Origin: an uncultured Spirochaetota bacterium
GTDB lineage: Bacteria > Spirochaetota > Spirochaetia > SZUA-6 > Fen-1364
Length of the DNA stretch: 64,000 nucleotides
NCBI GenBank assembly: GCA_963820525.1
Contig: CAWGAA010000001.1
Span: forward strand, 1,120,001 to 1,184,000
Direction of reading: 5' to 3'
A program made the translations under genes and the position numbers. The notes below the pieces were generated by a model. It was not told the DNA's origin and made no database searches. It worked only from the letters and a program-made list of their open reading frames with translations. Below, one piece after another: positions 24,460-42,500 of the stretch; position 1 is the stretch's first letter; each line of letters starts with the position of its first letter.

Positions 24460-25905
24460 CTACCGCGCTTCGTGCGCTTTCCCGCTCCCCTTCATCGGTA
24501 TCTCGAAGTATTGCACGGCGTTGTTCCAGCAGATGTCACGCACAATTCCCCCCAGAAGGTCGTAATCTTCGGGGGCTTCGCCGCGCTCCACGGCGCCCCC
24601 CAGCATGTCGCAGAGGATACGGCGGAAGCATTCGTGGCGGGGATACGAGAGGAAGCTGCGGGAGTCAGTGACCATGCCCACGAAACGCGCAAGCAGTCCC
24701 ATGTCAGCAAGCACCTTCATCTGCTCTTCCATTCCATGGGGCTGGTCGTTGAACCACCATGCCGATCCGAACTGCATCTTTGCACGCACGCTTTCCTGGG
24801 GATAATTGCCCGTCATGCAGGCAAGCACCGCATTGTCTGCCGGGTTCAGGCAGTAGAGGATGGTCTTTGGAAGAATGCCTTCGGCATCCAGCCTGTCCAT
24901 CAAGCGGGCAAGGCTGCGGGCAAAGGGAGCGTCCCCGATGGTGTCGAAACCGGAGTCCGGCCCCAGGGCCTTGCTGAAACGGGTATTGATGTTGCGCAGG
25001 GCCCCGATGTGAAGCTGCTGGACCCACTTTTTCTCCGCGTCCATGCGGGCAAGCTCCACCAGGATGGCGGACTTGAAGACGAGCACCTCTGACGGTGAGG
25101 GGGCGCGCCCGGCGCGCGCGGCAAGAAAGATAGCGCGGGCTTCCGCCTCCGTGAAATCTTCGGCGTATGGCACCTCGATTCCGTGATCCGAGATCCTGCA
25201 GCCGCTTTGGTGAAAGTAGTCGTGGCGCCTGCGCAGGGCGTCGATCAGGCGCTGCCAGTCCGGGATCTCTATGCCGGCGGACACCGCCAGCCTGTCCACC
25301 CAGGAGTTGAAGGCGGCGGGATCCTCCACCGCCATGGCGCGGTCCGGCCTGAAGGCGGGCACTACCGTAACGCCGAAGGATTCATCCCCGCGCAAACGGG
25401 CATGGTGTTCCAGGGAGTCCACGGGGTCATCCGTTGTGCACACCACGCGCACACCCATGCGCTCGAGCAGGCCGCGCACCCGGAAATCTTCGCGGCTCAG
25501 CAGGGCCGAGCAGTCGTCATAGATCTCCCGCGCGGTGCGCGGGCCAAGGAGCTTTCCAGAAACGCCGAAGTAGCGCTTGAGCTCCAGGTGGGTCCAGAGG
25601 TAGAGCGGGTTACCAACCGTGGAGGGTACAACCTCGGCCCAGGCCAGGAACTTCTCCTGATCCGAAGCGTCTCCCGTTATCAGGCGCTCCGGCACGCCGC
25701 AGGTCCGCATGGCGCGCCACTTGTAGTGGTCTCCGCCCAGCCACGCCTCGGTAATGCTTCCAAATCTCCGGTTCTCCGCGATGTCCTTCGGCGGCAGGTG
25801 GCAGTGAAAATCGAAGATCGGCATTTGCCGGGCATGCTCGTGGTACAGCCTTTTCGCCGCGCGGCTGCCAAGGAGGAAGCCCTCATCAAGGAATCGCCCC
25901 CCCAT
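24460..25905 (-). CDS. uxaC: Glucuronate (uronate) isomerase
   Basis: DFHCHL, GDHYKWRAMR, GSAWWFND, TDSRSFLSYPRHE. Confidence 0.96.
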   Translation of the reverse strand: MGGRFLDEGFLLGSRAAKRLYHEHARQMPIFDFHCHLPPKDIAENRRFGSITEAWLGGDHYKWRAMRTCGVPERLITGDASDQEKFLAWAEVVPSTVGNPLYLWTHLELKRYFGVSGKLLGPRTAREIYDDCSALLSREDFRVRGLLERMGVRVVCTTDDPVDSLEHHARLRGDESFGVTVVPAFRPDRAMAVEDPAAFNSWVDRLAVSAGIEIPDWQRLIDALRRRHDYFHQSGCRISDHGIEVPYAEDFTEAEARAIFLAARAGRAPSPSEVLVFKSAILVELARMDAEKKWVQQLHIGALRNINTRFSKALGPDSGFDTIGDAPFARSLARLMDRLDAEGILPKTILYCLNPADNAVLACMTGNYPQESVRAKMQFGSAWWFNDQPHGMEEQMKVLADMGLLARFVGMVTDSRSFLSYPRHECFRRILCDMLGGAVERGEAPEDYDLLGGIVRDICWNNAVQYFEIPMKGSGKAHEAR

Positions 25906-25923
25906 TGCGCACCTCCCCTGTGT

Positions 25924-26994
25924 CTACTCTATCATTTGCAGCGCCGCGCGCATGTACCCGATGGCATACGCCATGCCCGCGTGCCATGGCGCCGAGCACT
26001 CAAGGAGCGGCGTATGGTCCGGGATGAGAACCCCGGCGTATTGGTTCTTTTTCAAGATGCGGAGGATTCGCGGCACGTCGATGTCGCCCTCGTCTATGAA
26101 GACCTCGTGATATCGGGGAATCTTTCCGCGTACATTGCGCAGGTGGACGTATGCCAGCTTTCCCTGCGCGCTATAGAGATCCGTCGCCTCGTAGACGTCT
26201 CCCTCCGTCATCTCGGCGATGGTGCCTATGCAGAACTCGAGCGCATTGGAGCGGCTGAGCTTGAGGTCCAGAAGCCGCTGGTAGAGATGGGACTGGTAGA
26301 CGAGACGCGGCGTGCCGCGCACAACGGCGGCGGGAGGATCGTCGGGATGCGCCGCAAGGATGACGCCCGCCTCTTCGGCAACCGGCACAAGCTCATCAAG
26401 GAACCGCGCAAGCCGTCTCCACAGCTCTTCATGGGTGATGGGAGCGTGCGTTCCCGGAGGCGCATGCCGGTCATAGATCATGTTCCAGACCATGCCCTGG
26501 GGGATGGGCGTTTGGTCCACGCCCTCCACGCCCACTGACTCCGCCGCGCCGCGAGCGAAGGGGCCCGTCACTCTCCCGGCCACCCCCGCAATGCTGAAGT
26601 TGTACCCCATGACGGGAATCCCCGCCGCGCCCACGCTTCTTACCAGGCGCTTCAAGCCCCCCATCTGCGCCTCACGCTTTGGCCCATCCAGGAGCACGTC
26701 ATACCAGAAGGCCGGATCGAAGTTCTCGATAGCCTCGAGCGTAAGTCCCTCCGCCTCGATCTCCTTGCGAACGGCCAGAAGCTCTTCCGTGGTCCACAGC
26801 GCGTCAGGATCTCCGGCCACTCCCCAGCCTCCGCTCCAACTGCCCACCGGCTGGTTGTCCGTGGCCGCCGGGCCATCCGGCTTTCTGAAATAATCCACGA
26901 GGTGGATCACGACGTGCGTGCAGCCGATCTGCCTCGCGAATCTGTAGTTTTCCGGGGTGAGCATGTGCCTGTAGAGGCCGATTCCCAGCTTCAT
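25924..26994 (-). CDS. uxuA: Mannonate dehydratase (UxuA family)
   Basis: YNFS, AHPDDPP, FCIGT, VHLRNV, PDHTP, GMAYAIGY. Confidence 0.9.
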   Translation of the reverse strand: MKLGIGLYRHMLTPENYRFARQIGCTHVVIHLVDYFRKPDGPAATDNQPVGSWSGGWGVAGDPDALWTTEELLAVRKEIEAEGLTLEAIENFDPAFWYDVLLDGPKREAQMGGLKRLVRSVGAAGIPVMGYNFSIAGVAGRVTGPFARGAAESVGVEGVDQTPIPQGMVWNMIYDRHAPPGTHAPITHEELWRRLARFLDELVPVAEEAGVILAAHPDDPPAAVVRGTPRLVYQSHLYQRLLDLKLSRSNALEFCIGTIAEMTEGDVYEATDLYSAQGKLAYVHLRNVRGKIPRYHEVFIDEGDIDVPRILRILKKNQYAGVLIPDHTPLLECSAPWHAGMAYAIGYMRAALQMIE

Positions 26995-26996
26995 AT

Positions 26997-27812
26997 TCAA
27001 ACGCAGTCCACAAGGAAGCCGCCGTCCACCGGAATGCAGATTCCGGTGACAAAGCCCGAGGCCATGTTGTTGGCCAGGAACAGGACGGCGCCCGCAAGGT
27101 CTTCCGGGCTGCCGAACTTGCCGCACGGCGTTCTGGCAATGATGTCACGCCCGCGCTGCGTGAGCTCTCCTGACTTTTCATCCACGAGCAGCGCCCTGTT
27201 CTGCTTGCCCAGGAAGAAGCCCGGCGCGATGGCGTTGACGCGGATGCCGTACGGGGCGAACTCCTTTGCGGCGGCCATGGTGAGGTTCAGCACTCCCGCC
27301 TTGGCGGCATCGTACGCCCACACCCCGGAGAGGGGCACGTAGGATGACATCGATGCCATGTTGATGACGGATCCTTTCGCCTTCCTGTCAATCCAGGAGC
27401 GGCAGACCGCCTTGGTGGGCACCATGAGCCCCGCGATGAGGTTGAACTTCAGCACCTCCTCGAACTTTGCGATATCGGTATCCAGGAACGAGGTCTTTCC
27501 CCGGTTTCCTCCCACCGCGTTGACAAGGACGTCAATGCCGCCGAACGCGTGTTCGGTTGTACGCACGGCTTCCGCTACGGAGGCTTCGCTTCCCGCGTCC
27601 GCCACAACCCATGCAACGCGGTCTTTCGCATCCGCGGCTGAGCTCAAGCGCCGCGCCGCCTCCTGAAGCGAATCCTCATGCGGGCCCCAAAGAGACACCT
27701 TGGCGCCAGCGCCAAGAAGGGCTTCCGCCATGGCGCCGGCCAGGACCCCGCCCCCTCCCGCAATAGCGACGGTCCGCCCTTCAAGCCCGAACATCCGCTC
27801 GAGATATCCCAT
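26997..27812 (-). CDS. uxuB: SDR oxidoreductase, probable D-mannonate oxidoreductase
   Basis: GGGGVL, NAVGGN, YDAAK, APGFFLGKQNR; sits between uxuA and kdgK. Confidence 0.8.
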   Translation of the reverse strand: MGYLERMFGLEGRTVAIAGGGGVLAGAMAEALLGAGAKVSLWGPHEDSLQEAARRLSSAADAKDRVAWVVADAGSEASVAEAVRTTEHAFGGIDVLVNAVGGNRGKTSFLDTDIAKFEEVLKFNLIAGLMVPTKAVCRSWIDRKAKGSVINMASMSSYVPLSGVWAYDAAKAGVLNLTMAAAKEFAPYGIRVNAIAPGFFLGKQNRALLVDEKSGELTQRGRDIIARTPCGKFGSPEDLAGAVLFLANNMASGFVTGICIPVDGGFLVDCV

Positions 27813-27852
27813 GCCTATCCCCCGTTGCGGGCAGCTTACCCGCTGGATCCCG

Positions 27853-28947
27853 TTATCTCTGCACCCGGGCTCCCCGCCCCTGCGCCATGGCCACTACCTG
27901 GTCCAGGCGGGCCATAGTGATGTCCCCTGGATACGTGGTTAAAAGCGCTCCGTGCGCCCATCCCAGCCTGAGGGCGAGCTCGGGCGGCTGGTCCGTGAGC
28001 AGGCCGTAGATGAGGCCCGAGGCGAACCCGTCTCCACTGCCAATGCGGTCAAACACGTCAAGCGCGCACTCATCGCTCTCGTAAAAGCGGCCGTCGTACC
28101 AGAGAACCGCCTTCCACAGGTGGCGGGAGGCCGAGAGCACCGCGCGCAGCGTCGTTGCCACCGCCTTGATGGCGGGAAAATCGGCCCTCACCTTTTCCAT
28201 CATCTCCCGGAAGGCGCGCGTGTCCAGCGTGGATTGCCGGGATGAGACGTCGGGCCCCGGGATGCCCAGCCCCAGCTGCATGTCTTCCTCGTTTCCAATG
28301 AGGACGTCCACTCGGGAGACGATCCTTCGATTCACCTCGACAGCCAGGGCGGCTCCCCCGCCGGATGCCTCCCAGAGCTTCTTTCTATAGTTCAAATCGA
28401 AGGAGGTGACGGTTCCGGCATGCCGGGCGGCATCCATTCCCTGCTCTATCAAGGCCGAGCTTCCGGGGGAAAGCGAAGCGAAGATCCCTCCGGAGTGGAA
28501 CCAGCGCACGCCGCGGGACTGCAAGATGTCTTTCCAATCGAAGTCTCCCGGCGCGAGCAGGGCTCCTGCTTCGTTGGCACGGTCGTACCAGACCTCGGGC
28601 GCGCGCACGCCAATGCCGCGATCCGAATAGGTATTCCCGATGCGGGGCCCCTTGACCCCGTCGTAGTCGAACCATTTATAGAAGGCATCCACACCGGCTC
28701 TGCGCACCTCGGATTCCACCCACCACCCGGGGGGGTAGCGAACGTTCGCCGTCGCAATCGCGGTCCGCAGGCGAAAGCACTTGGCCAGGTTGGCCGCCGG
28801 GTTGTACTCAGCCCCCGAGCAGTGCCGCTCGAAGTGATGCGCCTCGTGCAGGGGGACCAGTCCCGGATCGAAGCGCTGCACCAGCGCTCCAAGGGCCAGG
28901 AAATCGAAAGCACATTCACCGGCATCTCGAATTTCAAGCTTCCCCAT
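27853..28947 (-). CDS. kdgK: 2-keto-3-deoxygluconate kinase (PfkB)
   Basis: SFDLNYR, GNEED, DRIGSGDGFASG; operon context. Confidence 0.85.
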   Translation of the reverse strand: MGKLEIRDAGECAFDFLALGALVQRFDPGLVPLHEAHHFERHCSGAEYNPAANLAKCFRLRTAIATANVRYPPGWWVESEVRRAGVDAFYKWFDYDGVKGPRIGNTYSDRGIGVRAPEVWYDRANEAGALLAPGDFDWKDILQSRGVRWFHSGGIFASLSPGSSALIEQGMDAARHAGTVTSFDLNYRKKLWEASGGGAALAVEVNRRIVSRVDVLIGNEEDMQLGLGIPGPDVSSRQSTLDTRAFREMMEKVRADFPAIKAVATTLRAVLSASRHLWKAVLWYDGRFYESDECALDVFDRIGSGDGFASGLIYGLLTDQPPELALRLGWAHGALLTTYPGDITMARLDQVVAMAQGRGARVQR

Positions 28948-28951
28948 TCCG

Positions 28952-29992
28952 TCACCCTCCTTGTGCGGCGCCGATCAGCGCGTCCAAGTTCTCCGCTGGC
29001 GTTCCGGGGGAAACCCCTCCGCCCGCGGAGAGAAGGAACGCGGGGTGACCGCCGTTTTCATTGATGCACCTCTTTGCACGGGCCGCTACCTCCTGGGGAG
29101 ACCCCTTGACCAGAACGTCCAGCGGCGCGACGTTTCCCATGAGGCAGACCGAGTCGCCCACGCGCCGCCGAGCCGAGCCGATGCTCTGCAGGTGCGTGAA
29201 GTTGAAGACGTTCACGCCCAGGTCAGCCAAAAACTCATAGCACACGGGCGAGTCGGTGTCGTTGTGAAGGATCTTCACGCGGGCCGGAATCCCGAACACT
29301 TCCTTGAAGCGGGGATGCGCGAACTCCCGGTAGTCTTCAGGGGAGAGAAACCCCATCACGTCGTCCAGCACCATGATCCCCTCGGTGCCCGGCAGAACGT
29401 CCGCCTGCGCCTCCAGCCACTCCTTCACGGTTCGCGTGGTCGTCTCCAGCAGCTTGTGCGTCTTTTCAGGCCAGGTTTTCATTCCCACGAGAAAGTCCGT
29501 GAGGCCCAACAGGTGCGCGGCCAGGGCAAGCGGCCCGCGGCTTGCCACGATCTTGATGTCCATCCCTGCGGCGCGAACCATCGGCAGGGCGCTCTTGTAC
29601 AGGGAGAGGACCAACGGCATCAACCCGTCCCGCCGGGGGTTGGCGGGGGTAAGCGCGTCGAGCTGGCACACATCCGAGGCGATGGGGTGGATGGACGGGG
29701 GCTGCACGGCCGAAAAAACCAGGCGGCAGCCGAAACCGGAAGGCTCTGCCGCCATGCCCGGCTCCACCCAGAAGCCGGGCAGGAAAATCGCGTCGGGAAA
29801 CCTGTTCATCACCGTCATGTTGGCCTGGAACCAGACCTCGGGGATGGCAATGTAGTCAACCGTTGAGATGCCGAGGAATGGCGGGATCCACGGGCTGTCG
29901 ATTATCAGGGCAACCGGGGGGGTCGGGAGGGGTTCTCCCCGGGAGGCCTTCAGAAGGTGTTCCCACTGTGCTGCCCTCATAGCATCCCCCAT
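28952..29992 (-). CDS. Uroporphyrinogen-decarboxylase/MtaA-CmuA superfamily protein
   Basis: EPSGFG, GPLALAAHLLG, FLSPEDYREF, LMGNVAP...GSPQEV, FLLSAGG..PGTPAEN TIM-barrel pattern. Confidence 0.85.
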   Translation of the reverse strand: MGDAMRAAQWEHLLKASRGEPLPTPPVALIIDSPWIPPFLGISTVDYIAIPEVWFQANMTVMNRFPDAIFLPGFWVEPGMAAEPSGFGCRLVFSAVQPPSIHPIASDVCQLDALTPANPRRDGLMPLVLSLYKSALPMVRAAGMDIKIVASRGPLALAAHLLGLTDFLVGMKTWPEKTHKLLETTTRTVKEWLEAQADVLPGTEGIMVLDDVMGFLSPEDYREFAHPRFKEVFGIPARVKILHNDTDSPVCYEFLADLGVNVFNFTHLQSIGSARRRVGDSVCLMGNVAPLDVLVKGSPQEVAARAKRCINENGGHPAFLLSAGGGVSPGTPAENLDALIGAAQGG

Positions 29993-30007
29993 GGGCTCAT
30001 TTTTTTC

Positions 30008-30055
30008 TTGACAAGACGGGAGAGGGGGTCCACAATGCCTGCCATACAAGTATGG
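30008..30055 (+). promoter_or_regulatory. GntR promoter plus palindromic operator candidate
   Basis: TTGACA-N17-CACAAT (30008-30036); palindrome CCATAC-AA-GTATGG (30042-30055) overlapping the gntR ATG in the divergent intergenic region. Confidence 0.6.
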
Positions 30056-30789
30056 TAGCACCGAAGCGGCTGATGGTCGAGATACTGGAACAAGAAAAAA
30101 ACCAGCCCATCCACCAGTGGGTTTACCAGGTCCTTCGGACCAATATCATCAAGCTCACCCTGAGGCCCGCCCAGCACATAAGCGAGAACGAGGTCTCCGA
30201 AGCCCTGGGAATAAGCCGGACTCCCGTTCGGGAAGCGTTCATCAGGCTGGCTGAGGACGGCCTGATCAAAATCACGCCGCAGAAAAGGTCCAGCATTTCT
30301 CTCATTGACCTTGAACAGGCTGAAGAGGCGCGGTTCGTGCGCATGGCCCTGGAAAAGGCCGTGCTGCGGGAGGCGTGCCGCGGGTTTTCCGAGACGGACC
30401 TCGCGGCCCTGAGCGCGAACATCCAGCAGCAGCGGGATTGCCGGCGTTCCAAGGCCTACGAGCGGATGCTGATTGTGGACAACGATTTCCATCACATCAT
30501 TTTCCGCGGCTGCGGGAAGGAGCGAAGCTGGTACTATCTGAAGAAGCTGGACTACAACTACGACAGGCTTCGAACCATGGTCATGCCCATCTCCCTGGAC
30601 CAGATCATCCTGGAGCACTCCCGGATCAGGGACGCTATTGCGGGCGGGGACATCGAGTGCGTCGACGAAATCGTGGATCGGCACCTGACGTGGGAGAAGA
30701 TCGAGAGAGTGGTGCACGAATGTCCCCCGGAGTATTTCAAGCAGAACCTTAGAAACGGACGGCTCGAGGCGTCCGTGGCGGCGCGCTGA
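30052..30789 (+). CDS. GntR (FadR/FCD) family transcriptional regulator
   Basis: ISRTPVREAF wHTH; DNDFH and EH FCD residues. Confidence 0.92.
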   Translation: MVAPKRLMVEILEQEKNQPIHQWVYQVLRTNIIKLTLRPAQHISENEVSEALGISRTPVREAFIRLAEDGLIKITPQKRSSISLIDLEQAEEARFVRMALEKAVLREACRGFSETDLAALSANIQQQRDCRRSKAYERMLIVDNDFHHIIFRGCGKERSWYYLKKLDYNYDRLRTMVMPISLDQIILEHSRIRDAIAGGDIECVDEIVDRHLTWEKIERVVHECPPEYFKQNLRNGRLEASVAAR

Positions 30790-30886
30790 TGGCGCCGCGT
30801 CGAGCATGAGCGGAAAGGAGGTACGGAAGCTCAAGACCGGAAAGACTTCGGGAATCAATCCCGAAAAAAGACTGTAAGGAGGCGAC

Positions 30887-32049
30887 ATGAAAAATTTCTT
30901 CGAATGGCTGTCATTTTCGTCGCGCTGGCCCTCACGCCCACGCTTCTCTTCTCTCAGGCCGACTGGACGGGCAAGCCCGTGAAGCTCAGCATCATCGACG
31001 TGGCGGGGAACCTGCGCCTCTCCAAGCCGGCAATCGAGGCGTTCAAGGCCGCAAACCCGAAGATGATTGCCGACATCGAGTACATCATCGCAACGGCCCC
31101 CGAGCTGGTGGCGAAAATCAAGGCGCAGCAGATGGCGGGCAACCTGGATACCACGATGGTCCTCACGGGCTATGACGGCATGGCGTCCGGAAAAGAACAG
31201 GGGGTCTGGGTGCAGCTCATGCCCAAGTACAAGGACGTATTCCAGAAATCGGTCGATTCCTATGTTCCCGGGGCAAAGGCGGCGTACAACCTGTTCGAGG
31301 GCTTCGGGATCGCCTACGTTTTCTGCCCCGGCGGACCCATGTTCACGTACAACCCCGACAAGGTGAAGACCCCGCCCAAGACCGCCGCGGATCTCCTGGC
31401 GTGGGCCAAGGCCAATCCCGGCAAGTTCCTCTATGCCAGGCCCGCGAACTCCGGGCCGGGACGCGCCCTGCTCCAGGGGCTGCCGTACATCCTGGGAGAC
31501 CCCGACCCGAAAGACCCGGCCACGTGGACAAAAACGTGGGCGTATCTGAAGGAGCTGGACAACTACATCGATTACTACCCCTCGGGAACCGCAATCACAT
31601 TCAAGGAGCTGGCGGAAGGCACCCGGTGGATCCTTGCCAGCCACCTGGGCTGGGACATGAACCAGCGCATCCTGGAAACCATTCCCGCCAACTTCCAGGG
31701 ATTCTTCCTCGATAAAACGACCTGGGTCAACGACACCCAGTTTATGGTGGTTCCCAAGGGCCTGGACGCCAACCGTGAAAAGGCAACCATCGCCCTCATG
31801 GAGTGGCTCATGCAGCCGGCGCAGCAGGCGGTCACCTATGACGACGGCTACTTCTATCCCGGCCCGGCCATCAAGGGCGTTCCCCTCTCCATGGCTCCGC
31901 AGGCCAGCCAGGACCGGATCAAGCCCGCTATGCGCGCCGCCTATGACGCGGCCATCCAGAAGCTTCCCAACGCTTCGCAGCTGGATGCCAAGCCGCTTGT
32001 GACGGCGTTCGACATGTGGGACAAGCTCGTCGGCGCGAAGATCAAGTAA
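30887..32049 (+). CDS. ABC transporter substrate-binding protein (PotD/AfuA-like); apparent 1-base loss in the A-run of the signal peptide
   Basis: AAGGAGG RBS before ATG 30887; one extra A gives MKKFLRMAVIF; YARPANSGPGR, YFYPGP motifs. Confidence 0.85.
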
Positions 32050-32123
32050 CGATCCAGCGCATTTCAAGGGGGACGACGGAGGCGCACGCCGGCTCCGTTG
32101 CCCCTCAAACTTTGAGGTCTTCC

Positions 32124-33251
32124 ATGAAGGATTTCACCCGATTCAGCATCAAGGACGTCACCAAAGAGTTCGTCGGCAAGACCGCCCTCTCGCGGTTCTC
32201 CCTGGACATCTCCCACGGCGAGTTCGTCACCTTCCTGGGCCCGTCCGGATGCGGAAAGTCCACGGCGCTCAACTGCATTGCGGGGCTGCTTCAGATCACC
32301 CACGGGGAGATCTCCATTGACGGGGAGCCCATTGACGATGGAAAGAAGAAGGTGCCCCCGGAGAAGCGCGAGTTCGGCATGGTGTTTCAAAACTATGCCC
32401 TCTTCCCGCACCTCTCCGTGTTCGGCAACGTCGCCTTCGGGCTCAGCCTGCGAAAGCTGCCCAAGGCTGTCATCCGCGAAAAGGTCCTGACGGCGCTGAA
32501 GTTGGTGCACCTGGAGGGTCACGAAAGAAAATTTCCCGCCCAATTGTCGGGCGGAGAACAGCAGAGGGTGGCCATTGCCCGATGCATCGTGCTCGAGCCG
32601 CGGCTTCTCATGCTGGACGAGCCGCTATCTAATCTGGATGCCAAACTGCGCGTGGAGATGCGCAACGAGCTTCTGGCGCTGCATACGCGACTGAAGGTGA
32701 CAACCATCTACGTCACTCACGACCAACAGGAGGCCCTTGCCCTCTCGGATCGCATCGTCGTCATGCGGCAGGGGCATATCCAGCAGGTGGGCACCCCCCA
32801 GCAGGTGTACTCTGATCCCGCCAACCTGTTCGTGGCCGATTTCATGGGGTTCAAGAATATCTGGCAGGCTGAACTCGCTTCTCTCAAGGAGAGCGCCGGC
32901 GGCCTCGAAGCCGAGGTAATCGTGAATGGAGTGAAGCTGCGCGCTCACCTGCGCTACCCCGCAGGGGACCCCCGGAGGGCCGCCCTTCTGGCCGCGTCCA
33001 AGGGTGACAGGAAGGTGAGAACCGCCATTCGGCCGGAAGACATCCGCGTGGGAAAGGCCGAGGGCGGCTCCCCCATGCAGGCGCAGGTTATGCTCGTGGA
33101 GTACCAGGGGCAGTCGAGCTCCGTGACCGCGCAGGCGAAAAACGATACCACCATCGAGCTTCGGCCCTCGACTTCCATGAGGACCGGAGATCCCATTGAG
33201 CTTACCATCGCGCCGGAGAGCGTGTTCGTGTTCGCGGACACCCAGGGGTGA
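32124..33251 (+). CDS. ABC transporter ATP-binding protein (PotA-like, TOBE domain)
   Basis: GPSGCGKS, LSGGEQQR, DEPLSNLD. Confidence 0.93.
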   Translation: MKDFTRFSIKDVTKEFVGKTALSRFSLDISHGEFVTFLGPSGCGKSTALNCIAGLLQITHGEISIDGEPIDDGKKKVPPEKREFGMVFQNYALFPHLSVFGNVAFGLSLRKLPKAVIREKVLTALKLVHLEGHERKFPAQLSGGEQQRVAIARCIVLEPRLLMLDEPLSNLDAKLRVEMRNELLALHTRLKVTTIYVTHDQQEALALSDRIVVMRQGHIQQVGTPQQVYSDPANLFVADFMGFKNIWQAELASLKESAGGLEAEVIVNGVKLRAHLRYPAGDPRRAALLAASKGDRKVRTAIRPEDIRVGKAEGGSPMQAQVMLVEYQGQSSSVTAQAKNDTTIELRPSTSMRTGDPIELTIAPESVFVFADTQG

Positions 33252-33254
33252 GGC

Positions 33255-34112
33255 ATGAATAAAGGACTACGAGGCGCCGGCTTTCTCCTGCTCCTGCCCG
33301 CCCTTTTATTCGTCTTCCTTCTGTTCCTGTATCCCTTCCTCTATGGGCTGTTTCTCAGCTTCACGGACGCCGGCGGCGCCCCCACCCTCTCCAACTACGC
33401 GCGGTTCTTCCTGGATTCATGGGAGGCCCGCACGATCTGGGTCACGCTCTGGATCTCCGTTCCCGCCACCCTCATCAACGTGGTCCTCGCCATTCCCTTC
33501 GCCGTCTTCATGCGCCATGGGATGCGCGGAGAGAAGGTGGTCACGTTTTTCCTGATCGTCCCCCTCACCCTCGGGACCGTGCTGGTCTCCGAGGGAATGC
33601 TCACCTATATGGGACCCAACGGGTGGCTCAACCAGCTTCTCCAGGCCATCCACCTAGCCAGGGCCCCCATCAGATTCACGCATAACTACCTCGGGGTCCT
33701 GATCTCACTGGTCATCCAGGGCTTCCCGTTCGCGTTCCTCATGATTCTGGGGTACGTCTCCGGAATCAACCCGGATCTAGAAAAGGCAAGCCGGATGCTC
33801 GGCGCCTCGCGGCTTCAGACTTTCGCCAGGGTGCTGTTTCCGCTCATGGTGCCGGGAATCGCCATCTGCTTCTGCCTGAACTTCGTCATGGCTTTTTCGG
33901 TGTTTCCGTCCGCCATGCTCCTGGGCCAACCGTCGGGCCCCACCCGCGTCATCGCCATCGCGGCCTGGCAGTGGGCCTTCGAAAAGTTCGATTTCAACGC
34001 CGCCTCTGCCATTTCCATGATCATGGCGGCCATCGAGCTTGTCGTCATCTCCCTGGTCCTCGTGTGGCGCAACAGGATGTACAAAGGCGCATCCATGGTC
34101 GGAAAGGGATAG
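33255..34112 (+). CDS. ABC transporter permease (PotB-like)
   Basis: TM segments, EKASRMLGAS (EAA loop). Confidence 0.9.
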   Translation: MNKGLRGAGFLLLLPALLFVFLLFLYPFLYGLFLSFTDAGGAPTLSNYARFFLDSWEARTIWVTLWISVPATLINVVLAIPFAVFMRHGMRGEKVVTFFLIVPLTLGTVLVSEGMLTYMGPNGWLNQLLQAIHLARAPIRFTHNYLGVLISLVIQGFPFAFLMILGYVSGINPDLEKASRMLGASRLQTFARVLFPLMVPGIAICFCLNFVMAFSVFPSAMLLGQPSGPTRVIAIAAWQWAFEKFDFNAASAISMIMAAIELVVISLVLVWRNRMYKGASMVGKG

Positions 34113-34116
34113 GCAC

Positions 34117-34935
34117 ATGCAGGGGAAAAGACTCACGCTGGGCGGGGTGTTCTTCATCCTCGCCATGATCGTCTACGTGGGAAACGTCCTGGGGATACTC
34201 TTCACGGTCATTCTCAACTCGGCATCCAAGGGCTGGTATTCAGGGATCCTTCCCAAGTTCCTGACGGGAGAGTGGTACGTCTACGTTGCGGCGGAGCACG
34301 ATATCGCCAACCTGCTCCAGGTCACCTTCATCGTGGCCATTGCCGTGGTTGCCATTTCCATCTTGATCGCCTTTCCCGCCGCCTATGTCCTCAGCCGCAC
34401 GGACTTCAGGGGAAAGGCGGCGCTCCTCTCCCTCTTTCTGCTTCCCATGATCGTGCCGCCCATGACCTATGGAATTCCCCTGGCCATGGTGCTCTACAAG
34501 TTTCATCTGGCCGCACGGGTGACGGGTGTGATCCTTGCCAACCTCGTTCCGATAGTCCCGTTCGTGATTCTCATCCTGATGCCGTTCATAGAGCAGGTGG
34601 GAGCCAATCTGGAATCCGCCGCGCAGATGCTGGGCGCGCGCCGCTTGACCATTTTCAGAAAGATCCTCGTTCCGCTGACCCTGCCCGGGATTCTCACCGC
34701 GGGGATCCTCTCCATCGTGAAGACGATATCGATGTTCGAGCTTACCTACCTGGTTGCCGGAGGGAAGTCCCAGACCATCGTCGTCGCGCTCTACGCCGAT
34801 GCGTATGCCGCCGGAGCGCGCCCCCCGCAGGCGGTGGACGCGCTGGCCGTCATCTACTTCCTCATCACGATGGTGTGCCTCATCATTGCGCTTCGATTCG
34901 TCAGCCCCACGCAGATGGTGTTCAAGATCAAGTAG
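34117..34935 (+). CDS. ABC transporter permease (PotC-like)
   Basis: ESAAQMLGA (EAA loop), DFRGKAALLSLFLLP. Confidence 0.9.
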   Translation: MQGKRLTLGGVFFILAMIVYVGNVLGILFTVILNSASKGWYSGILPKFLTGEWYVYVAAEHDIANLLQVTFIVAIAVVAISILIAFPAAYVLSRTDFRGKAALLSLFLLPMIVPPMTYGIPLAMVLYKFHLAARVTGVILANLVPIVPFVILILMPFIEQVGANLESAAQMLGARRLTIFRKILVPLTLPGILTAGILSIVKTISMFELTYLVAGGKSQTIVVALYADAYAAGARPPQAVDALAVIYFLITMVCLIIALRFVSPTQMVFKIK

Positions 34936-37024: not shown

Positions 37025-38287
37025 TCAGTTGGTCGCGAACCGCGGCGCGGACCGGCGGGCGGGGCCGCAGCGGAATCCCCGGCCTCGGGGCTGCTGCTGT
37101 CCTCGGCCGCGCCTGAAATCGCCCGGGACCGGCGCTTGCCCTGGCTTCTTTGCCAAGGGCGCTGTGGTGTAGTCGAATCCTTCTGCCTTTTGCCGCGGCA
37201 GGCGCTTTCCCAGGGCACGCTCGATGGCGGCGAAGTCCTTCTCCTCCTCGGGGGAGACCAGGGTGTATGCGTCACCCGTCAGCTGGGCGCGCGCCGTGCG
37301 GCCCACCCGGTGGATGTAGTCGTCGGGCTGGTGGGGCACATCGAAGTTCACCACCGAGCCCAGCGCTTCGATGTCGATGCCGCGCGCGGCGATGTCGGTC
37401 GCGACGAGCACCCGGAAGCTGCCTTTCTTGAAGCCGGCAAGAGCGGCGGTGCGCTGCGACTGGCTGCGGTTGCCATGGATTCGCGCGCACGGCACTCCTT
37501 TCTTGTCCAGGAAATTCGCGAGTCTGTCGGCGCGATGCTTGGTCCGCGTGAATATCAGCACGCTTCCCGATATGTCCCGACAGAGGAGCTCGAGGAGAAG
37601 GTCCGACTTTCGCTCCGATGAGACGGGGAACACGGCGTGCGAGACGCCGGTTGCCGGGGCAGGCTTCCGGTCGATGTTGATCCGCGCGGGGTCGCGGAGC
37701 AATTCCCGCGACAGCTCGACGATCGCGGGGGGAAGCGTTGCGGAGAAGAACAGGGTCTGGCGGTCTTCCGGAATCGCGGCCAGCACCCTTTTGATGTCGG
37801 GCAGGAATCCCATGTCGAGCATGCGGTCCGCCTCATCGAGCACGAGGTGCTCGAGGCTGGAGAAGTCGGCGTGAGGGCCGCGAAGGTGATCCAGGAGCCT
37901 GCCGGGGCAGGCGATGATCACGTCAACGCCCTTTCGAAGCGCCCGCTGCTGGCCGCCCATGCCCACCCCGCCGTACACGGCGGCGCAGGTCAGGCGCGTT
38001 CCGACTGCAAGCTGCTGGAAGTGCTCCGCTATCTGCGCCGCGAGCTCGCGCGTGGGCGCGAGCACCAGCGCCCGGGTGGCGCCGCGCTGGCGAGGAAGAA
38101 GCCGATTCATGATCGGAAGGAGGAACGCGGCCGTCTTGCCGCTGCCCGTCTCGGCGCTCGCCAGGACGTCCCGTCCCGCGAGCGCGGGAGGGATCGCGGC
38201 CAGCTGAATGGGGGTGGGCCGATCGAAGCCCATGCGCTCGACCGAGGCACGGAGCGGCTCCGAGAGTGAAAGCTGTGAAAAACTCAT
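37025..38287 (-). CDS. rhlE: DEAD-box RNA helicase
   Basis: Q motif, TGSGKT, PTRELA, DEAD, SAT, ARGID, HRVGRTAR. Confidence 0.93.
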   Translation of the reverse strand: MSFSQLSLSEPLRASVERMGFDRPTPIQLAAIPPALAGRDVLASAETGSGKTAAFLLPIMNRLLPRQRGATRALVLAPTRELAAQIAEHFQQLAVGTRLTCAAVYGGVGMGGQQRALRKGVDVIIACPGRLLDHLRGPHADFSSLEHLVLDEADRMLDMGFLPDIKRVLAAIPEDRQTLFFSATLPPAIVELSRELLRDPARINIDRKPAPATGVSHAVFPVSSERKSDLLLELLCRDISGSVLIFTRTKHRADRLANFLDKKGVPCARIHGNRSQSQRTAALAGFKKGSFRVLVATDIAARGIDIEALGSVVNFDVPHQPDDYIHRVGRTARAQLTGDAYTLVSPEEEKDFAAIERALGKRLPRQKAEGFDYTTAPLAKKPGQAPVPGDFRRGRGQQQPRGRGFRCGPARRSAPRFATN

Positions 38288-38783: not shown

Positions 38784-39347
38784 TTATTGCGCCGTTGTGA
38801 TTGCGCTTCTGTTTCTTTCCCGGTTCTTCTCGATTTCCTTCCAGAAACCGATGGCGACGGGTACGGCGAGCAGCGCGGCCGTTGAAAAAAGGAGATCTAC
38901 GCTGTTTATCGTCCCCGTCTGCGTGTGAGGATACAAGTACCCCGCGTAGCCCACCGCCGCGGCAGCCGCGATTCCTCCCGCCATCGTGATGAGAACGTCC
39001 GTGAATCGGGGGTCTCCGAACCCCGTCGAGTCGAGGATCTCTTTCGACACCCCGGCGACCAAGGCCGCTGAGAGAGCCACCGCGGGAAGATAAAGGGGAT
39101 TCTCCCCCGCGAACTGCGGGTCCGTAACGCTCTGGAAGATTCCCGCGAACGCAAGCCCCGCGGCCATTCCGCCCAGAAAATGAAGGTATTTGCCGGAAGT
39201 TGGAGGAACTTCATCCGGTGAAAGCGCGATGAGCGGACTCGACGCCGTGTCCGCCGGCACGGAGTTGGCGGTGAGCAAAAGCGCGGCGATCAGAAGCGGA
39301 AGGCGCGCCACAGCAAATAGGATACAGCAGATAACGGCCAGCAGCAA
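38784..39347 (-). CDS. Hypothetical membrane protein (YfiM-like)
   Basis: KYLHF...GVSKEILD..G.GDP...D motif, signal peptide and TM helices. Confidence 0.55.
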   Translation of the reverse strand: MLLAVICCILFAVARLPLLIAALLLTANSVPADTASSPLIALSPDEVPPTSGKYLHFLGGMAAGLAFAGIFQSVTDPQFAGENPLYLPAVALSAALVAGVSKEILDSTGFGDPRFTDVLITMAGGIAAAAAVGYAGYLYPHTQTGTINSVDLLFSTAALLAVPVAIGFWKEIEKNRERNRSAITTAQ

Positions 39348-39516
39348 AGGGCGCTTCCGCTCGCCAGGCCCAGGAGGCGGCCTCCTCCCCGCCAGTCCTT
39401 GCGCCGTGGGTGAAGATGCACTACGCTCTAGGCAACAGCGAAGGAGAAGCCGAGGGGATCAATCAGCGGGGAGCCGCTGCGGCGAGAAAAAGCGGCCTCC
39501 GGTGATTGCGAGTTCA

Positions 39517-42500
39517 ATGCGTAGTCCAATCAAACCACATCGAGCGGCCGGGCTTTCGGAAAAGATAGATCCTCCCATCGGCAATCGCCGACACACCATC
39601 GGGTTCCTCTTCGGCGACTTCTACGGAGCCTATACGGCGAATCTGTTCTCCACCGTGATGAAGGCGTGCAGGGAGTACGGCCAGAACATCGTCGGTTTTG
39701 GAGGAGGGTTCCTCAAAAGCCCGGGCGGAGCCGTCCTCGGTGAAAACTGCAATTTCATCTACGATCTGGCGGGCAGGGAGAATATCGACGGATTGATCGT
39801 CGAGGGATCGATTGGCAACTTCATCTCGAAAAAGGAGATGGATCGGTTCCTGCAAAAATACGCGGGCATTCCGATTGTCAACATCGGAACGAACATCGAA
39901 GGGGTCAACAATATCCTCATCGACAACAAGAAGGGTATGCGGGATCTTGTCACCCACATGATCGAATACCATGGGCATAAAAAGCTCGCGTTCATGACCG
40001 GGACGGATGGCAACTGGGATGCAATCCAGCGGTTCGAGGCGTATGAGGAGGTCCTGCGCTGCCACGACATCGCCGTGGATTACAATCGGATCGTCAACGG
40101 GAACTTCAGCTATTTCGGCGGGGGGCAGGCTTTCCAGACCCTGTGGGAGGAAAGAAAGGCCGACTTCGACGCGCTCCTGTGCGCGAACGACTACATGGCG
40201 ATCAGCGCCATGAATGAGATGCGCAAGCGCGGATTGAAAATACCCGAGACCGCGGCCATCACCGGGTTCGACGACACCGAGGAATGCTGGACCACCAAGC
40301 CGATCCTCACCACCGTGAAGCAGCCCTTTTATGACGTCGGCCAGGAAAGCGTCAAGATGCTGCTGGCGCTCTTGGAGGGCAGGAAAGTGCCGGCACAGGT
40401 CACCCTGCCTGCCGAGCTCGTCATCAGGGAATCGTGCGGCTGCAAAGCGGTGGATACATTGAGCCACATCATGGGCAACGGGCTTTCGAAGAAACGCAAA
40501 GCGCGCATCGCCGGAAACGGACGAAAGGGATTCATCGACGAGCTTCGAAAGACGATGGAGGATGAGCTTCCCTCTCTGAAGAACAAGATCGACTTGCAGC
40601 GCTGGCTGAAGGACCTGGTGGATTGCTATTGCGATGTCGCCGCGGGGAAAGACGGCAACCGCCTGTTCGAGAGCTTTGTGGCGATGTTGCGAAGATTCAT
40701 CGACAGCAACGAGGAAATAATAACGATCTATCGGTTCATATCGATTTTCTTCGGCGGCCTGATACGTCGCTTCATCCCCGCAGAAGAGCGGGAAGCCGCG
40801 CTCGTGCTGTGGAACGAAACGGATGTCTTGTTCGGATTGCTGATAAAGGAGGATCTATCCGAAAAGAAGGCCACGTTGAAGCTGGAATCCCACGTTGTGT
40901 TCGACATCAACGAGAGCTTCATCAACACATTCGACATGGAAAAGCTGAAGGAAGTGATCCTTGACAATCTTCCCTCTTTCCAGTTCAAGAGCTTTTTTGC
41001 GTGCCTGTTCGATGATCCGGATCGGGAAACTTCGAGAATCCTCTTATCGTACGATAAGAACCGGTCCGAAAACGTGAGCGAAGGTCCCTTCCCGTCAAAA
41101 TACCTGCTGCCCGGCAAAATAAACAGGAGCAAGCCGTTCGAGTACGTCGTCATGGCGTTGAATTTCAAGGACGAGTACTTCGGCTACATCCTCTACGATA
41201 TCCAGACTCTCGCCACCTTCATCTATGAAACCCTGTCCGTGCAAATCAGCGGCGCCATCAAAGGGGCGCGGCTCACCAACGAGCTCACCGAATACGCGAC
41301 GCAGCTCGAGACCAAGGTGAAGGAGCGGACCGCGAAGCTCGAGGACGCGAACGAAAAGCTGAAGAAGCTCGACGAGCTGAAGAACGACTTCATCGCGAAC
41401 ATCACGCACGATTTCAGATCTCCGCTGACGGCGATCCTCAACATCGCCGATCTTGCCCTGCGGTTCAACGAAAACCTGGATGAGGAGAGCCGGGAAAGCT
41501 ACAGCGTAATCTACAAGGCCTCGCTGAGGTTGAAGAGCTCCATCGACAAGCTCCTGGAGCTCGCGAAAATGGACGCCCACGGGATCAAGCTGAAGGTGAG
41601 GCCCGTAGAGCTTGCGGCCTTCATGAACAAGATGCTGGATTTCTATTCCTCCTCCGTCATCGGCAGCGAGATACGGATCGTGCGGAAGCTGCCGGAAAAG
41701 GAGATCGCGAACTTCTATACCGATGCGGAGAAACTGCAGGAAATAATCGACAATATAATCTCCAACGCGATCAAGTTCGTGAACCCGACCGGAGGGCTCA
41801 TCACGTTCGAACTGGAGGAGGAGAAAGACGTCGTCTTGATCAGCGTATCCGACAATGGCATCGGGATAAACAAAAAGAAGCTGGAAACGATATTCAACAG
41901 GTTCGAGCAGGCCCACGACGGGAGAAACAGCCCCTATCGAGGAACGGGAATCGGACTGGCATTCTCGAAGCAGCTTGTCGGCTATCTCAAGGGGAGGATA
42001 TGGGCGGAGTCCGAAGGGGAAGGGAAGGGCGCGAAATTCACCGTTGAGCTTGAAAAGGGAAAACACATCTTCGACGAGAAGGACTTCAGCGACGAGGAGA
42101 TGGGGCAGGGAAAGCGTGAAGAAGCCAAGGCATTGATAGAAACCGACATCGGAATGAAATTGAGCGAAGAGAAAGTCGTGACCTATTTCACGGACCCGAA
42201 GAAAGAGAACGAAACGGACTACAAGAAAGGCATAATCCTGATCATCGATGACGACAGAAACGTCAGGGAAATAGTCCTGAAGTATCTGAAAAGCAACGGC
42301 TACATGAATTTCATCGCAGCCTCGGATGGGAAGCTGGGGCTCGAAGCCGTGTTCGCGCATTCCCCCGACATCATTCTCTGCGACTATAACATGCCGAACA
42401 TGAAGGGAGACGAGTTTCATAACGAGCTCGCGGATAACCCGAAGTACAAAGAGATCCCGTTCGTCTTCCTGTCTGCCATCGCGGACGAGAACCTGATCAT

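Follow-up and report, generated by a model that had tools for sequence, protein, structure and literature searches.

A URO-D-superfamily gene at the head of a Spirochaetota hexuronate operon is a tentative candidate for corrinoid-dependent demethylation of 4-O-methyl-glucuronate

Results

A hexuronate operon headed by a URO-D-like gene

We analyzed a stretch of 64,000 nucleotides (the window) from an uncultured Spirochaetota bacterium (GenBank assembly GCA_963820525.1, contig CAWGAA010000001.1, positions 1,120,001 to 1,184,000 of the forward strand), in which a gene of the uroporphyrinogen decarboxylase (URO-D)/MtaA superfamily is the first gene of an operon for the breakdown of hexuronates (Table 1). 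The reading that we favor, although with slightly less than even confidence, is that this gene encodes a corrinoid-dependent O-demethylase for 4-O-methyl-glucuronate which feeds the Ashwell pathway. A first-pass annotation made from the sequence alone had described a tight minus-strand operon of the URO-D-like gene, kdgK, an SDR gene, uxuA and uxaC, with a GntR gene and a PotABCD-like transporter running divergently from it, and our open reading frame (ORF) listing and profile scans bore out this layout and the gene families on both sides.

The gaps between the operon genes, from the URO-D-like gene to UxaC, are 4, 40, 2 and 18 nt, with the ATG of the UxuA-like gene at 26994 following the SDR stop by 2 nt. 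For the mannonate oxidoreductase, the mannonate dehydratase and the 2-keto-3-deoxygluconate (KDG) kinase the expected families were the top-scoring ones, yet all three remained under the NCBIfam cut-offs. The PfkB-family kinase scored 106 bits with the curated KDG-kinase model (cut-off 440), and its top NCBIfam matches, likewise below cut-off, were the kinase half of a KHG/KDPG aldolase-kinase fusion (230 bits) and KDG/KDGal kinases. The UxuA-like protein passed the Pfam model and matched the mannonate dehydratase of PDB entry 3ban (E 1.5e-31), and its homologs (56-66% identical) lie near URO-D-like genes in the loci L040, L071 and L120. The SDR probably takes the role of UxuB, judging from its best model; a KduI/KduD-type role for the operon was set aside, since the SDR scored 243 bits with the mannonate oxidoreductase model against 139-146 bits with the KduD models. 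There is no eda gene in the window, all PF01081 matches of the genome being elsewhere: Eda, the KDPG aldolase (PF01081, 214.6 bits), is encoded at G000:C3:442501-443073, next to a second KdgK-like gene.

Three more records (L001/L113, which are one genome, L033 and L034) share the entire operon with its divergent regulator and transporter, at 76-77% identity. Because the same layout is retained in these three records, and because a 14-bp palindrome between the two arms is invariant in five of five loci, the gene arrangement is more than chance.

Table 1. Genes and control elements of the hexuronate locus in the window
Feature	Coordinates	Strand	Evidence and remarks
UxaC glucuronate isomerase	24460-25905	-	NF002794, 616.8 bits (cut-off 387)
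UxuA-like mannonate dehydratase, divergent subfamily	25924-26994	-	Pfam UxuA, 148 bits; NCBIfam 119 (cut-off 191)
SDR oxidoreductase, D-mannonate-oxidoreductase-like	26997-27812	-	Top NCBIfam PRK08277, 243 bits (cut-off 281)
PfkB-family kinase, 2-keto-3-deoxygluconate-kinase-like (KdgK-like)	27853-28947	-	PF00294
URO-D/MtaA-superfamily gene, first of the operon	28952-29992	-	PF01208, 142 bits; homologs begin at the second ATG, 29980
Sigma-70-like promoter match TTGACA-17-CACAAT toward the GntR gene	30008-30036	+	10 of 12 matches; consensus match only
Perfect 6-2-6 palindrome CCATACAAGTATGG, 14 bp	30042-30055	.	Read from the sequence; overlaps the predicted GntR start
GntR/FCD-family regulator	30052-30789	+	PF00392 and PF07729; kept in L001, L033, L034 and L107
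Periplasmic binding protein SBP_bac_8, PotD/PhnS type, signal peptide	30904-32049	+	PF13416, 115 bits
ABC ATPase, PotA/PhnT/UgpC-like, TOBE domain	32016-33251	+	PF00005 and PF08402; about 347-350 bits to PotA and PhnT2 models, below cut-off
ABC permease 1	33255-34112	+	PF00528; 73% identical permease upstream of a 53% ortholog in L105
ABC permease 2	34039-34935	+	PF00528; 67% identical copy in L105; true start probably downstream of 34039

The URO-D-like protein appears to be neither HemE nor a canonical zinc MtaA

The protein matched PF01208 over the full domain (142.1 bits against a gathering threshold of 23.9), residues 34-366 of the long ORF aligning to positions 4-343 of the 346-position profile, and the models of the MtaA/CmuA families failed (TIGR01463, 93.3 vs 235.4; PRK06252, 95.1 vs 244). 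In MtaA/CmuA methyltransferases the motif H-x-C...C is the zinc site for thiol activation; the phenyl methyl ether O-demethylase methyltransferases OdmB/VdmB are without it and have an unusual zinc motif instead. The first-pass annotation had read HNDT and SAGGG in place of the zinc ligands, and this stood up to HMMER alignment with 4ay7, the MtaA of Methanosarcina mazei, which placed H243-N-D245 on H-I-C and S322-A-G-G-G on A-P-G-C-G. The two zinc-cysteine positions thus hold D245 and G325, H243 being retained, and this pattern is invariant across the clade. Its further remark that the RQAGR and LGHG motifs of UROD are missing was also correct, IDSPW falling on RQAGR and SAGGG on LGHG in alignments to the UROD structures 6w2o and 4exq. 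An AlphaFold (AF2) model built from 24 homologs had a predicted local distance difference test score (pLDDT) of 90.6, and its top structural match by Foldseek was 4ay7 (E 2e-21, template-modeling score 0.83), followed by UROD; 4ay7 was also the best PDB match by sequence (E 5e-15). These comparisons support the view that the protein is neither HemE nor a canonical zinc-dependent MtaA.

That the gene might encode an ordinary uroporphyrinogen decarboxylase which merely adjoins sugar genes is suggested by the name that public sources give to the protein and by its Pfam match, and we regard it as hardly credible. The protein has its Pfam family, fold and public annotation in common with HemE/UROD, whereas the HemE model, the RQAGR and LGHG motifs and the substrate route differ. 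With the HemE model TIGR01464 it scored 54.5 bits against a cut-off of 302.95, and in a search of the whole genome with this model none of the URO-D paralogs rose above the cut-off. HemC (porphobilinogen deaminase, PF01379) was not found in the genome, which is 96.7% complete, an incomplete assembly being no proof of absence. We rejected a HemE identity on the model score, the replaced motifs and the failure to find HemC. In addition, Dictyoglomus turgidum is reported not to make tetrapyrroles (PMC5167688), while Dictyoglomaceae-like contigs carry orthologs of the gene. The host genome as a whole holds eight PF01208 paralogs and no HemE, and several of these paralogs adjoin sugar ABC transporters or two-component systems.

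The family is large and tightly conserved. Among 8,000 scored candidates 3,216 proteins were found at E <= 0.001, the best 120 of which were all at least 53% identical, and a Dictyoglomaceae-type member used as the query returned 2,506 sequence clusters at E <= 1e-80. The clade to which the window's protein belongs, here called the HKHA clade, has among its source names Spirochaetia, Marispirochaeta aestuarii, Pirellulaceae, Planctomycetota, Verrucomicrobia, Limisphaerales, Anaerolineales and Actinomycetota, as well as Dictyoglomaceae, Thermanaeromonas and Moorella thermoacetica. Its invariant or near-invariant residues are D32, W35, E77, E83, R152, H160, K172, D210, D211, H226, K240, H243, N244, D245, N264, H267, N287, S322-A-G-G-G, S328 and T331. 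Its distribution is patchy: eight of 60 relatives have an ortholog at 62% identity or more, and two of 301 sampled Spirochaetota genomes have one, so that co-occurrence testing within this phylum was not feasible. Two of the eight orthologs contain internal stops, one TAA in G007:C15:91456-92484 and both TGA and TAG in G021:C28:97041-98067, which is found as two pieces; these may be decaying copies or assembly errors.

Orthologs recur beside genes for the use of (methyl)glucuronate

We then compared the gene neighborhoods of the orthologs, using 80 loci from metagenome contigs together with loci from the relatives and from Acidobacteriota. The contig loci were retrieved with an alignment as the query, which was used instead of a single-protein query that gave four loci, two of them useful. 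To score the neighbors we ran tblastn with marker proteins identified beforehand through Pfam, because calling the longest ORFs gave antisense artefacts in the G+C-rich loci. Merging proteins at least 90% identical left 65 groups of orthologs that share 47% or more identity with the window's protein. Of these, 34 were well flanked, with 3 kb or more of sequence to either side; two of the 34 consist of the window and its close kin, and L002 and L126 are the same genome locus.

At least one of the uronate markers GH67, UxaC, UxuA-like and KdgK-like lay within 6 kb of the ortholog in 11 of the 34 groups (4, 3, 4 and 4 groups, respectively). The most frequent neighbors within this distance were Gfo/Idh/MocA oxidoreductases (16 groups), usually a pair starting 0-100 nt downstream; zinc-dependent alcohol dehydrogenases (Zn-ADH) were found in 7 groups and SDR proteins in 8, and some dehydrogenase of these three kinds in 27. 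TRAP transporters were present in 6 groups, corrinoid proteins in 2, and RACo and MtaB in one each. The first-pass annotation had named a lack of enrichment next to uronate genes as the result that would speak against its idea; instead, uronate markers accompany orthologs in several lineages. The full uronate operon is confined to the closest relatives of the window.

GH67 enzymes free (4-O-methyl)glucuronate from xylo-oligosaccharides, and 4-O-methyl-glucuronate, the chief acidic side group on the xylans of hardwoods and cereals, is released in large amounts by GH67 and GH115. In four dereplicated low-GC groups (L093, L095/96, L097 and L109; five loci) a GH67 gene ends 11-19 nt ahead of the ortholog. 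The four groups are 69-88% identical to one another and are therefore one lineage; close homologs of their proteins bear Dictyoglomaceae names. The GH67 of D. turgidum is reported to be active on xylan (PMC5167688) and that of Bacillus halodurans to need the 4-O-methyl group (PMC8056927). A further case comes from the Acidobacteriota, where one genome (G420, locus L147) has the order GH67, SDR, URO-D-like gene, with GH67 0.8 kb upstream, an SDR 47% identical to that of the window and a URO-D-like gene of nearly the window's motif type. Other arrangements include UxuA-like, TRAP, ortholog and Gfo in L040; SDR, UxuA-like, Gfo, ortholog and Gfo in L071; and, in L064 and L094, the Gfo pair followed by UxaC (within 3 kb), an enolase-superfamily protein, an SDR and a LarA-like protein. 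These findings support a link between the family and (methyl)glucuronate genes well beyond the operon of the window.

Two features of these neighborhoods deserve separate mention. The clusters at L094:217-14644 and L064:4363-18839 begin with an NMT1-type ABC transporter, a cupin, a 404-aa protein without a Pfam match (present in six loci) and the URO-D-like gene, and continue with two Gfo/Idh/MocA genes, UxaC, the enolase-superfamily protein, the SDR and the LarA-like 'hexonate epimerase'; L094 has in addition a shikimate-kinase-like kinase and a 6PGDH-like protein. This recurring cluster may represent an undescribed route from uronate to hexonate. In TRAP-type loci (L042, L043, L045 and L069; also listed are L061, L072, L066 and L070) the gene immediately ahead of the ortholog encodes a second, distant URO-D paralog of about 355 aa whose C-terminal motif is rich in cysteine, and the tandem paralogs could be a donor-side and acceptor-side pair.

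Corrinoid-linked loci and the sister clade

Genes for corrinoid-dependent methyl transfer were found at two loci of the window's clade. On a Dictyoglomaceae-like contig (L109, 3170-10044) the order is an Opp-type ABC transporter for oligosaccharides, a corrinoid protein, RACo, MtaB (559 bits), GH67 and the ortholog, so that a methanol methyltransferase set sits between the transporter and the GH67 and URO-D-like genes, which places methanol or methyl handling inside a locus for xylan utilization. In L094 a corrinoid protein is encoded inside the operon, between the Gfo pair and UxaC, and there is no MtaB.

Such links are clearer in a sister clade, 34-39% identical to the window's protein, which shares D32, W35, E77, E83, R152, D210, D211, HND, N264 and N287 and which has S-C-G-G-G and hydrophobic residues at positions 160, 172, 226 and 267. 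In the corresponding identity bin, a corrinoid protein is encoded within 6 kb in six of 11 groups. In L117, L118/L119, L121, L122 and L123 the sister-type gene forms a triad with a corrinoid protein and a Met_synt_B12-like protein, and the triad of L123 adjoins LacI, GH67 and GH43. Sister-type genes are also found with uronate genes, ahead of UxuA in G461 and beside GntR, UxuA-like and SDR genes in L120. An intermediate form occurs in the Acidobacteriota (G393, L145:3857-9685), in an operon of URO-D, a corrinoid protein, RACo, a 417-aa protein without a Pfam match and a homocysteine S-methyltransferase; this operon resembles a methionine synthase of the MetH type that has been split and has a URO-D protein as its donor module. 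In a FastTree phylogeny rooted with other paralogs the G393 form branched first and the sister clade (support 1.0) fell among HKHA lineages, the deep nodes being weak (0.3-0.8). Since corrinoid-linked forms thus bracket the window's clade on the tree, corrinoid dependence is likely to be the ancestral state. Among the Acidobacteriota, RACo is present in three of the four genomes with a match compared to 41 of 251 overall; this statistic was left unused because only one of the four genomes has the motif type of the window.

The host genome encodes a single orphan corrinoid protein and a single RACo

The first-pass annotation had stated that no corrinoid protein is present. This is true of the window, all PF02310 matches of the genome being elsewhere, but not of the genome, which encodes exactly one MtaC-like corrinoid protein (G000:C2:522031-522651; PF02607 and PF02310) with an intact D125-x-H127-x-x-G130 motif, and exactly one RACo (C3:494231-496021). 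Both genes are orphans, and MtaB and MttB were not found in the genome. Another methyl-donor enzyme must therefore serve the MtaC-like protein and RACo, unless they are only involved in making methionine. A canonical MetH is not evident; the genome has the B12-binding_2 domain once, three homologs with a homocysteine-methyltransferase domain and a 312-aa pterin-binding protein. The bacterium looks like a tetrapyrrole auxotroph which still keeps one corrinoid protein and one RACo.

In structure prediction, the complex of the URO-D-like enzyme with this orphan corrinoid protein scored 0.78, compared to 0.02 for the best of three controls; the mark used for this score, whose calibration is approximate here, was reached by 116 of 157 solved complexes and by two of 215 mismatched pairs. 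The runs agreed in at least 98% of contacts and the pLDDT of the partner was at least 80. In the models, the cobalamin face of the Rossmann domain (residues 124-129, 176-179 and 206-207) covers the C-terminal mouth of the barrel (163-173, 215-220, 291 and 329), a predicted geometry as methyl transfer would need. The residues of the predicted interface are about equally conserved in the HKHA and sister clades, which decides nothing.

Control region, transporter and surroundings

The divergent side begins about 60 nt upstream of the URO-D-like gene on the opposite strand. The palindrome CCATACAAGTATGG is the element that is invariant in all five aligned loci (the window, L001, L033, L034 and L107), whereas the flanking bases vary, and it is likely to be the operator of the GntR/FCD regulator. 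It sits just 3′ of the promoter match, in which the stretch TTGTCAAG is conserved in the aligned loci. The binding protein is 83-84% identical in the three syntenic records, and a structure search found no solved relative of it at E <= 0.01. Beyond the transporter, a tyrosine recombinase/integrase gene (PF00589; 34754-35983, plus strand) begins within the 3′ end of the permease 2 ORF, followed by a DEAD-box helicase gene (37025-38287, minus strand) and by an ORF of 1371 aa (39190-43305, plus strand) in a stretch of lower G+C content (0.53-0.55) with strong AT skew. The integrase region may be the edge of an integrated element that adjoins the transporter; no tRNA genes were found anywhere in the window.

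Discussion

A possible corrinoid-dependent route for 4-O-methyl-glucuronate

The first-pass annotation had suggested that the enzyme demethylates a modified uronate or carries out another new reaction. The demethylation part is strengthened by the assignment of the protein outside HemE and the zinc MtaA enzymes and by the links to uronate genes, and it gains a concrete corrinoid route because the genome has an orphan corrinoid protein and RACo and because related loci carry corrinoid parts; the enzyme may instead carry out another new reaction. In the route that we propose, the ABC system would take up a methylated uronate released from fragments of xylan or arabinogalactan, most likely 4-O-methyl-D-glucuronate, and the URO-D-like enzyme would act as a methyl-ether-cleaving methyltransferase I which passes the methyl group to the Co(I) of the corrinoid protein. 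The partner would be the single MtaC-like protein of the genome, kept active by the single RACo; a housekeeping methyltransferase would then transfer the methyl group to tetrahydrofolate or homocysteine. Freed of its methyl group, the glucuronate would be converted by UxaC, the SDR in the role of UxuB, the UxuA-like and KdgK-like proteins and finally by Eda encoded elsewhere. Of this route, the gene content, fold, motifs, conserved neighborhoods and the occurrence of a corrinoid protein and RACo in the genome are observed, the docking of the corrinoid protein is supported solely by modeling, and the nature of the substrate, the methyl acceptor and the direction in which the methyl group travels are inferred.

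Several observations weigh against this proposal. None of the eight URO-D paralogs of the genome adjoins the corrinoid protein, and a split methionine synthase could account for this orphan protein and RACo. Among the relatives, the corrinoid protein is present in 59 of 61 genomes and RACo in 55 of 61, and since they are near-universal, co-occurrence there discriminates nothing. The complex was predicted from custom alignments, which makes the calibration of its score only approximate, and the score may reflect likeness to solved or cousin complexes. At the level of the family, a corrinoid protein, RACo, MtaB or homocysteine methyltransferase was found within 6 kb in only two of the 34 groups (two of 65 overall), and the operons with the clearest corrinoid link are those of sister or intermediate forms, outside the HKHA clade. 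The HKHA clade has moreover lost Cys323 of the sister clade and gained H160, K172, H226 and H267, changes which could signal an altered mechanism. The uronate link has its own gaps, as 23 of the 34 groups lack any uronate marker within 6 kb, the commonest neighbors, the Gfo/Idh/MocA pairs, are left unexplained by demethylation, and GH67 was not found in the window's own genome. Finally, we know of no described corrinoid-dependent cleavage of an alkyl (sugar) methyl ether, the known cases being aryl ethers.

Alternative functions

It is possible, though unlikely, that beta-elimination and rehydration of a methylated keto-uronate or keto-sugar, by a corrinoid-independent and perhaps metal-dependent enzyme, sets methanol free, with the carbonyl coming from UxaC here and from Gfo/Idh/MocA, Zn-ADH or SDR proteins elsewhere, as in a cassette that oxidizes, eliminates and reduces, for which the levoglucosan and 3-keto-glycoside routes are precedents. 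The HKHA clade has three extra invariant histidines and a lysine and has lost Cys323 by comparison with the corrinoid-linked sister; a dehydrogenase lies within 6 kb in 27 of the 34 groups, often 0-100 nt downstream, against two groups with corrinoid genes nearby; and the methanol-specific MtaB, the corrinoid protein and RACo of L109 are in one gene string with GH67 and the ortholog, as would suit the production of free methanol at that locus. By textbook numbering, the 4-O-methyl group would also be beta to the C2 keto group of fructuronate, and in mannonate it would occupy the position of the 3-position leaving group that UxuA eliminates. However, such chemistry is not described for any member of the superfamily, the clade is bracketed on the tree by corrinoid-linked forms, a corrinoid protein occurs without MtaB in L094, and the predicted fold with the corrinoid protein passed, with the conserved surface residues G163, L168, K172 and F215 in the modeled interface. 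A particular version, in which the HKHA clade has left corrinoid chemistry and become a cofactor-light lyase/hydratase of sugar ethers in the URO-D fold, with the three new histidines and the lysine at its core, releasing methanol from keto-uronates or keto-sugars in a redox-neutral manner with its dehydrogenase or UxaC partners, is in our estimate likewise unlikely. The protein could also be a sugar-acid enzyme unrelated to methyl groups, either a decarboxylase of beta-keto uronates or hexonates (glucuronate to pentose) or a hexuronate or hexonate isomerase or epimerase, which we consider unlikely. The ancestral chemistry of UROD is cofactor-free decarboxylation; the orthologs occur amid dehydrogenase pairs, TRAP transporters, an L-idonate-5-dehydrogenase-like Zn-ADH (256 bits, below cut-off) and the LarA-like 'hexonate epimerase'; and the invariant R152, K172, K240, D210, D211, E77 and E83 suit an acidic sugar. 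Such a function leaves unexplained the recurrent corrinoid protein, RACo and MtaB neighbors and the corrinoid-linked sister clade that shares the core residues, and the Ashwell genes of the window are, by textbook knowledge, a complete route for plain glucuronate which needs no extra step. RQAGR and LGHG of UROD are also replaced.

The corrinoid neighbors can be read in yet another way, with the protein either on the acceptor side, as a second methyltransferase from methyl-corrinoid to tetrahydrofolate or another acceptor (a bacterial counterpart of MtaA), or in a split methionine synthase, as the donor module that binds methyl-tetrahydrofolate; in neither case would it be the demethylase that is specific for the substrate. 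On this view L109 would make up a complete system for methanol, with MtaB, the corrinoid protein, RACo and an MtaA-like protein, the operons of G393 and L121 resemble MetH with the pterin module exchanged for a URO-D protein, the proteins unk29 (404 aa) and unk417 that adjoin some orthologs could be donor-side enzymes, and the same predicted complex fits. We nonetheless judge this improbable: there is no reason for a generic acceptor-side enzyme to stand first in a uronate operon, or behind GH67, where a donor-side enzyme is missing, as in the window, L093-L097 and L147; the window's genome is without MtaB or MttB; and the homocysteine methyltransferase of G393 already covers the acceptor side.

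Relation to known systems

The proposed demethylase is closest in structure to the methylcobamide:coenzyme M methyltransferases MtaA/MtbA/MtsA (4ay7), with which it has in common the TIM-barrel fold and the histidine of H-x-C (H243), as well as, in the model, the docking of a corrinoid protein on the barrel mouth. It differs from MtaA in that both zinc cysteines are replaced, in its proposed direction, from substrate to cobalt as opposed to cobalt to thiol, and in its place in a sugar-acid operon without an adjoining corrinoid protein. In its proposed job it would resemble OdmB/VdmB, likewise passing an ether methyl group to corrinoid Co(I), as part of a system in which a second methyltransferase and an activase are required too; the proposed substrate is an alkyl (sugar) methyl ether and theirs an aryl one, the partners here are scattered in the genome, and the two are likened by description only. 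According to the available portion of PMC10418091, OdmB/VdmB, the phenyl methyl ether O-demethylase methyltransferase I of acetogens, belongs to the UroD superfamily, which includes corrinoid O-, S- and halogen-demethylases; sugars are unmentioned in that portion. The URO-D protein, B12-binding protein, activation module (RACo or Met_synt_B12-like) and homocysteine S-methyltransferase of G393/L121 correspond to the module set of MetH, but as separate proteins with a URO-D-type and not a pterin-binding donor, and they are sister or intermediate forms outside the window's clade. Dedicated removal of O-methyl groups from a polysaccharide sugar, which enables its ordinary catabolism, is also reportedly carried out in marine porphyran degraders by a cytochrome P450 that demethylates 6-O-methyl-D-galactose in an oxygen-dependent reaction yielding formaldehyde. 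That enzyme has an unrelated fold, and the URO-D-like candidate would act without oxygen and conserve the methyl group.

In a full-text literature search, with most subscription journals outside its coverage, 'methylglucuron' never occurred together with 'corrinoid' or 'uroporphyrinogen decarboxylase', and searches of the same scope returned nothing relevant on URO-D with glucuronidase and xylan, on methylated sugars with corrinoid demethylases or on the family in sugar metabolism. As far as these searches show, an enzyme that demethylates 4-O-methyl-glucuronate for uronate catabolism is undescribed.

What each function would imply for the biology of the family differs. A corrinoid-independent enzyme would represent new enzyme chemistry in an old fold, and a lyase/hydratase function of the HKHA clade would amount to a general, so far unseen route for the removal of O-methyl groups from plant and algal polysaccharides, present in several phyla and thousands of clusters, and to a direct source of methanol in anoxic habitats. 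If the URO-D-like enzyme is instead the corrinoid-dependent O-demethylase that we favor, corrinoid ether cleavage would be extended from aryl methyl ethers to the methyl ethers of carbohydrates, the breakdown of xylan would be joined to one-carbon metabolism (methionine, methyl-tetrahydrofolate and acetogenesis), and a large clade that is now annotated as 'uroporphyrinogen decarboxylase' would be given a function.

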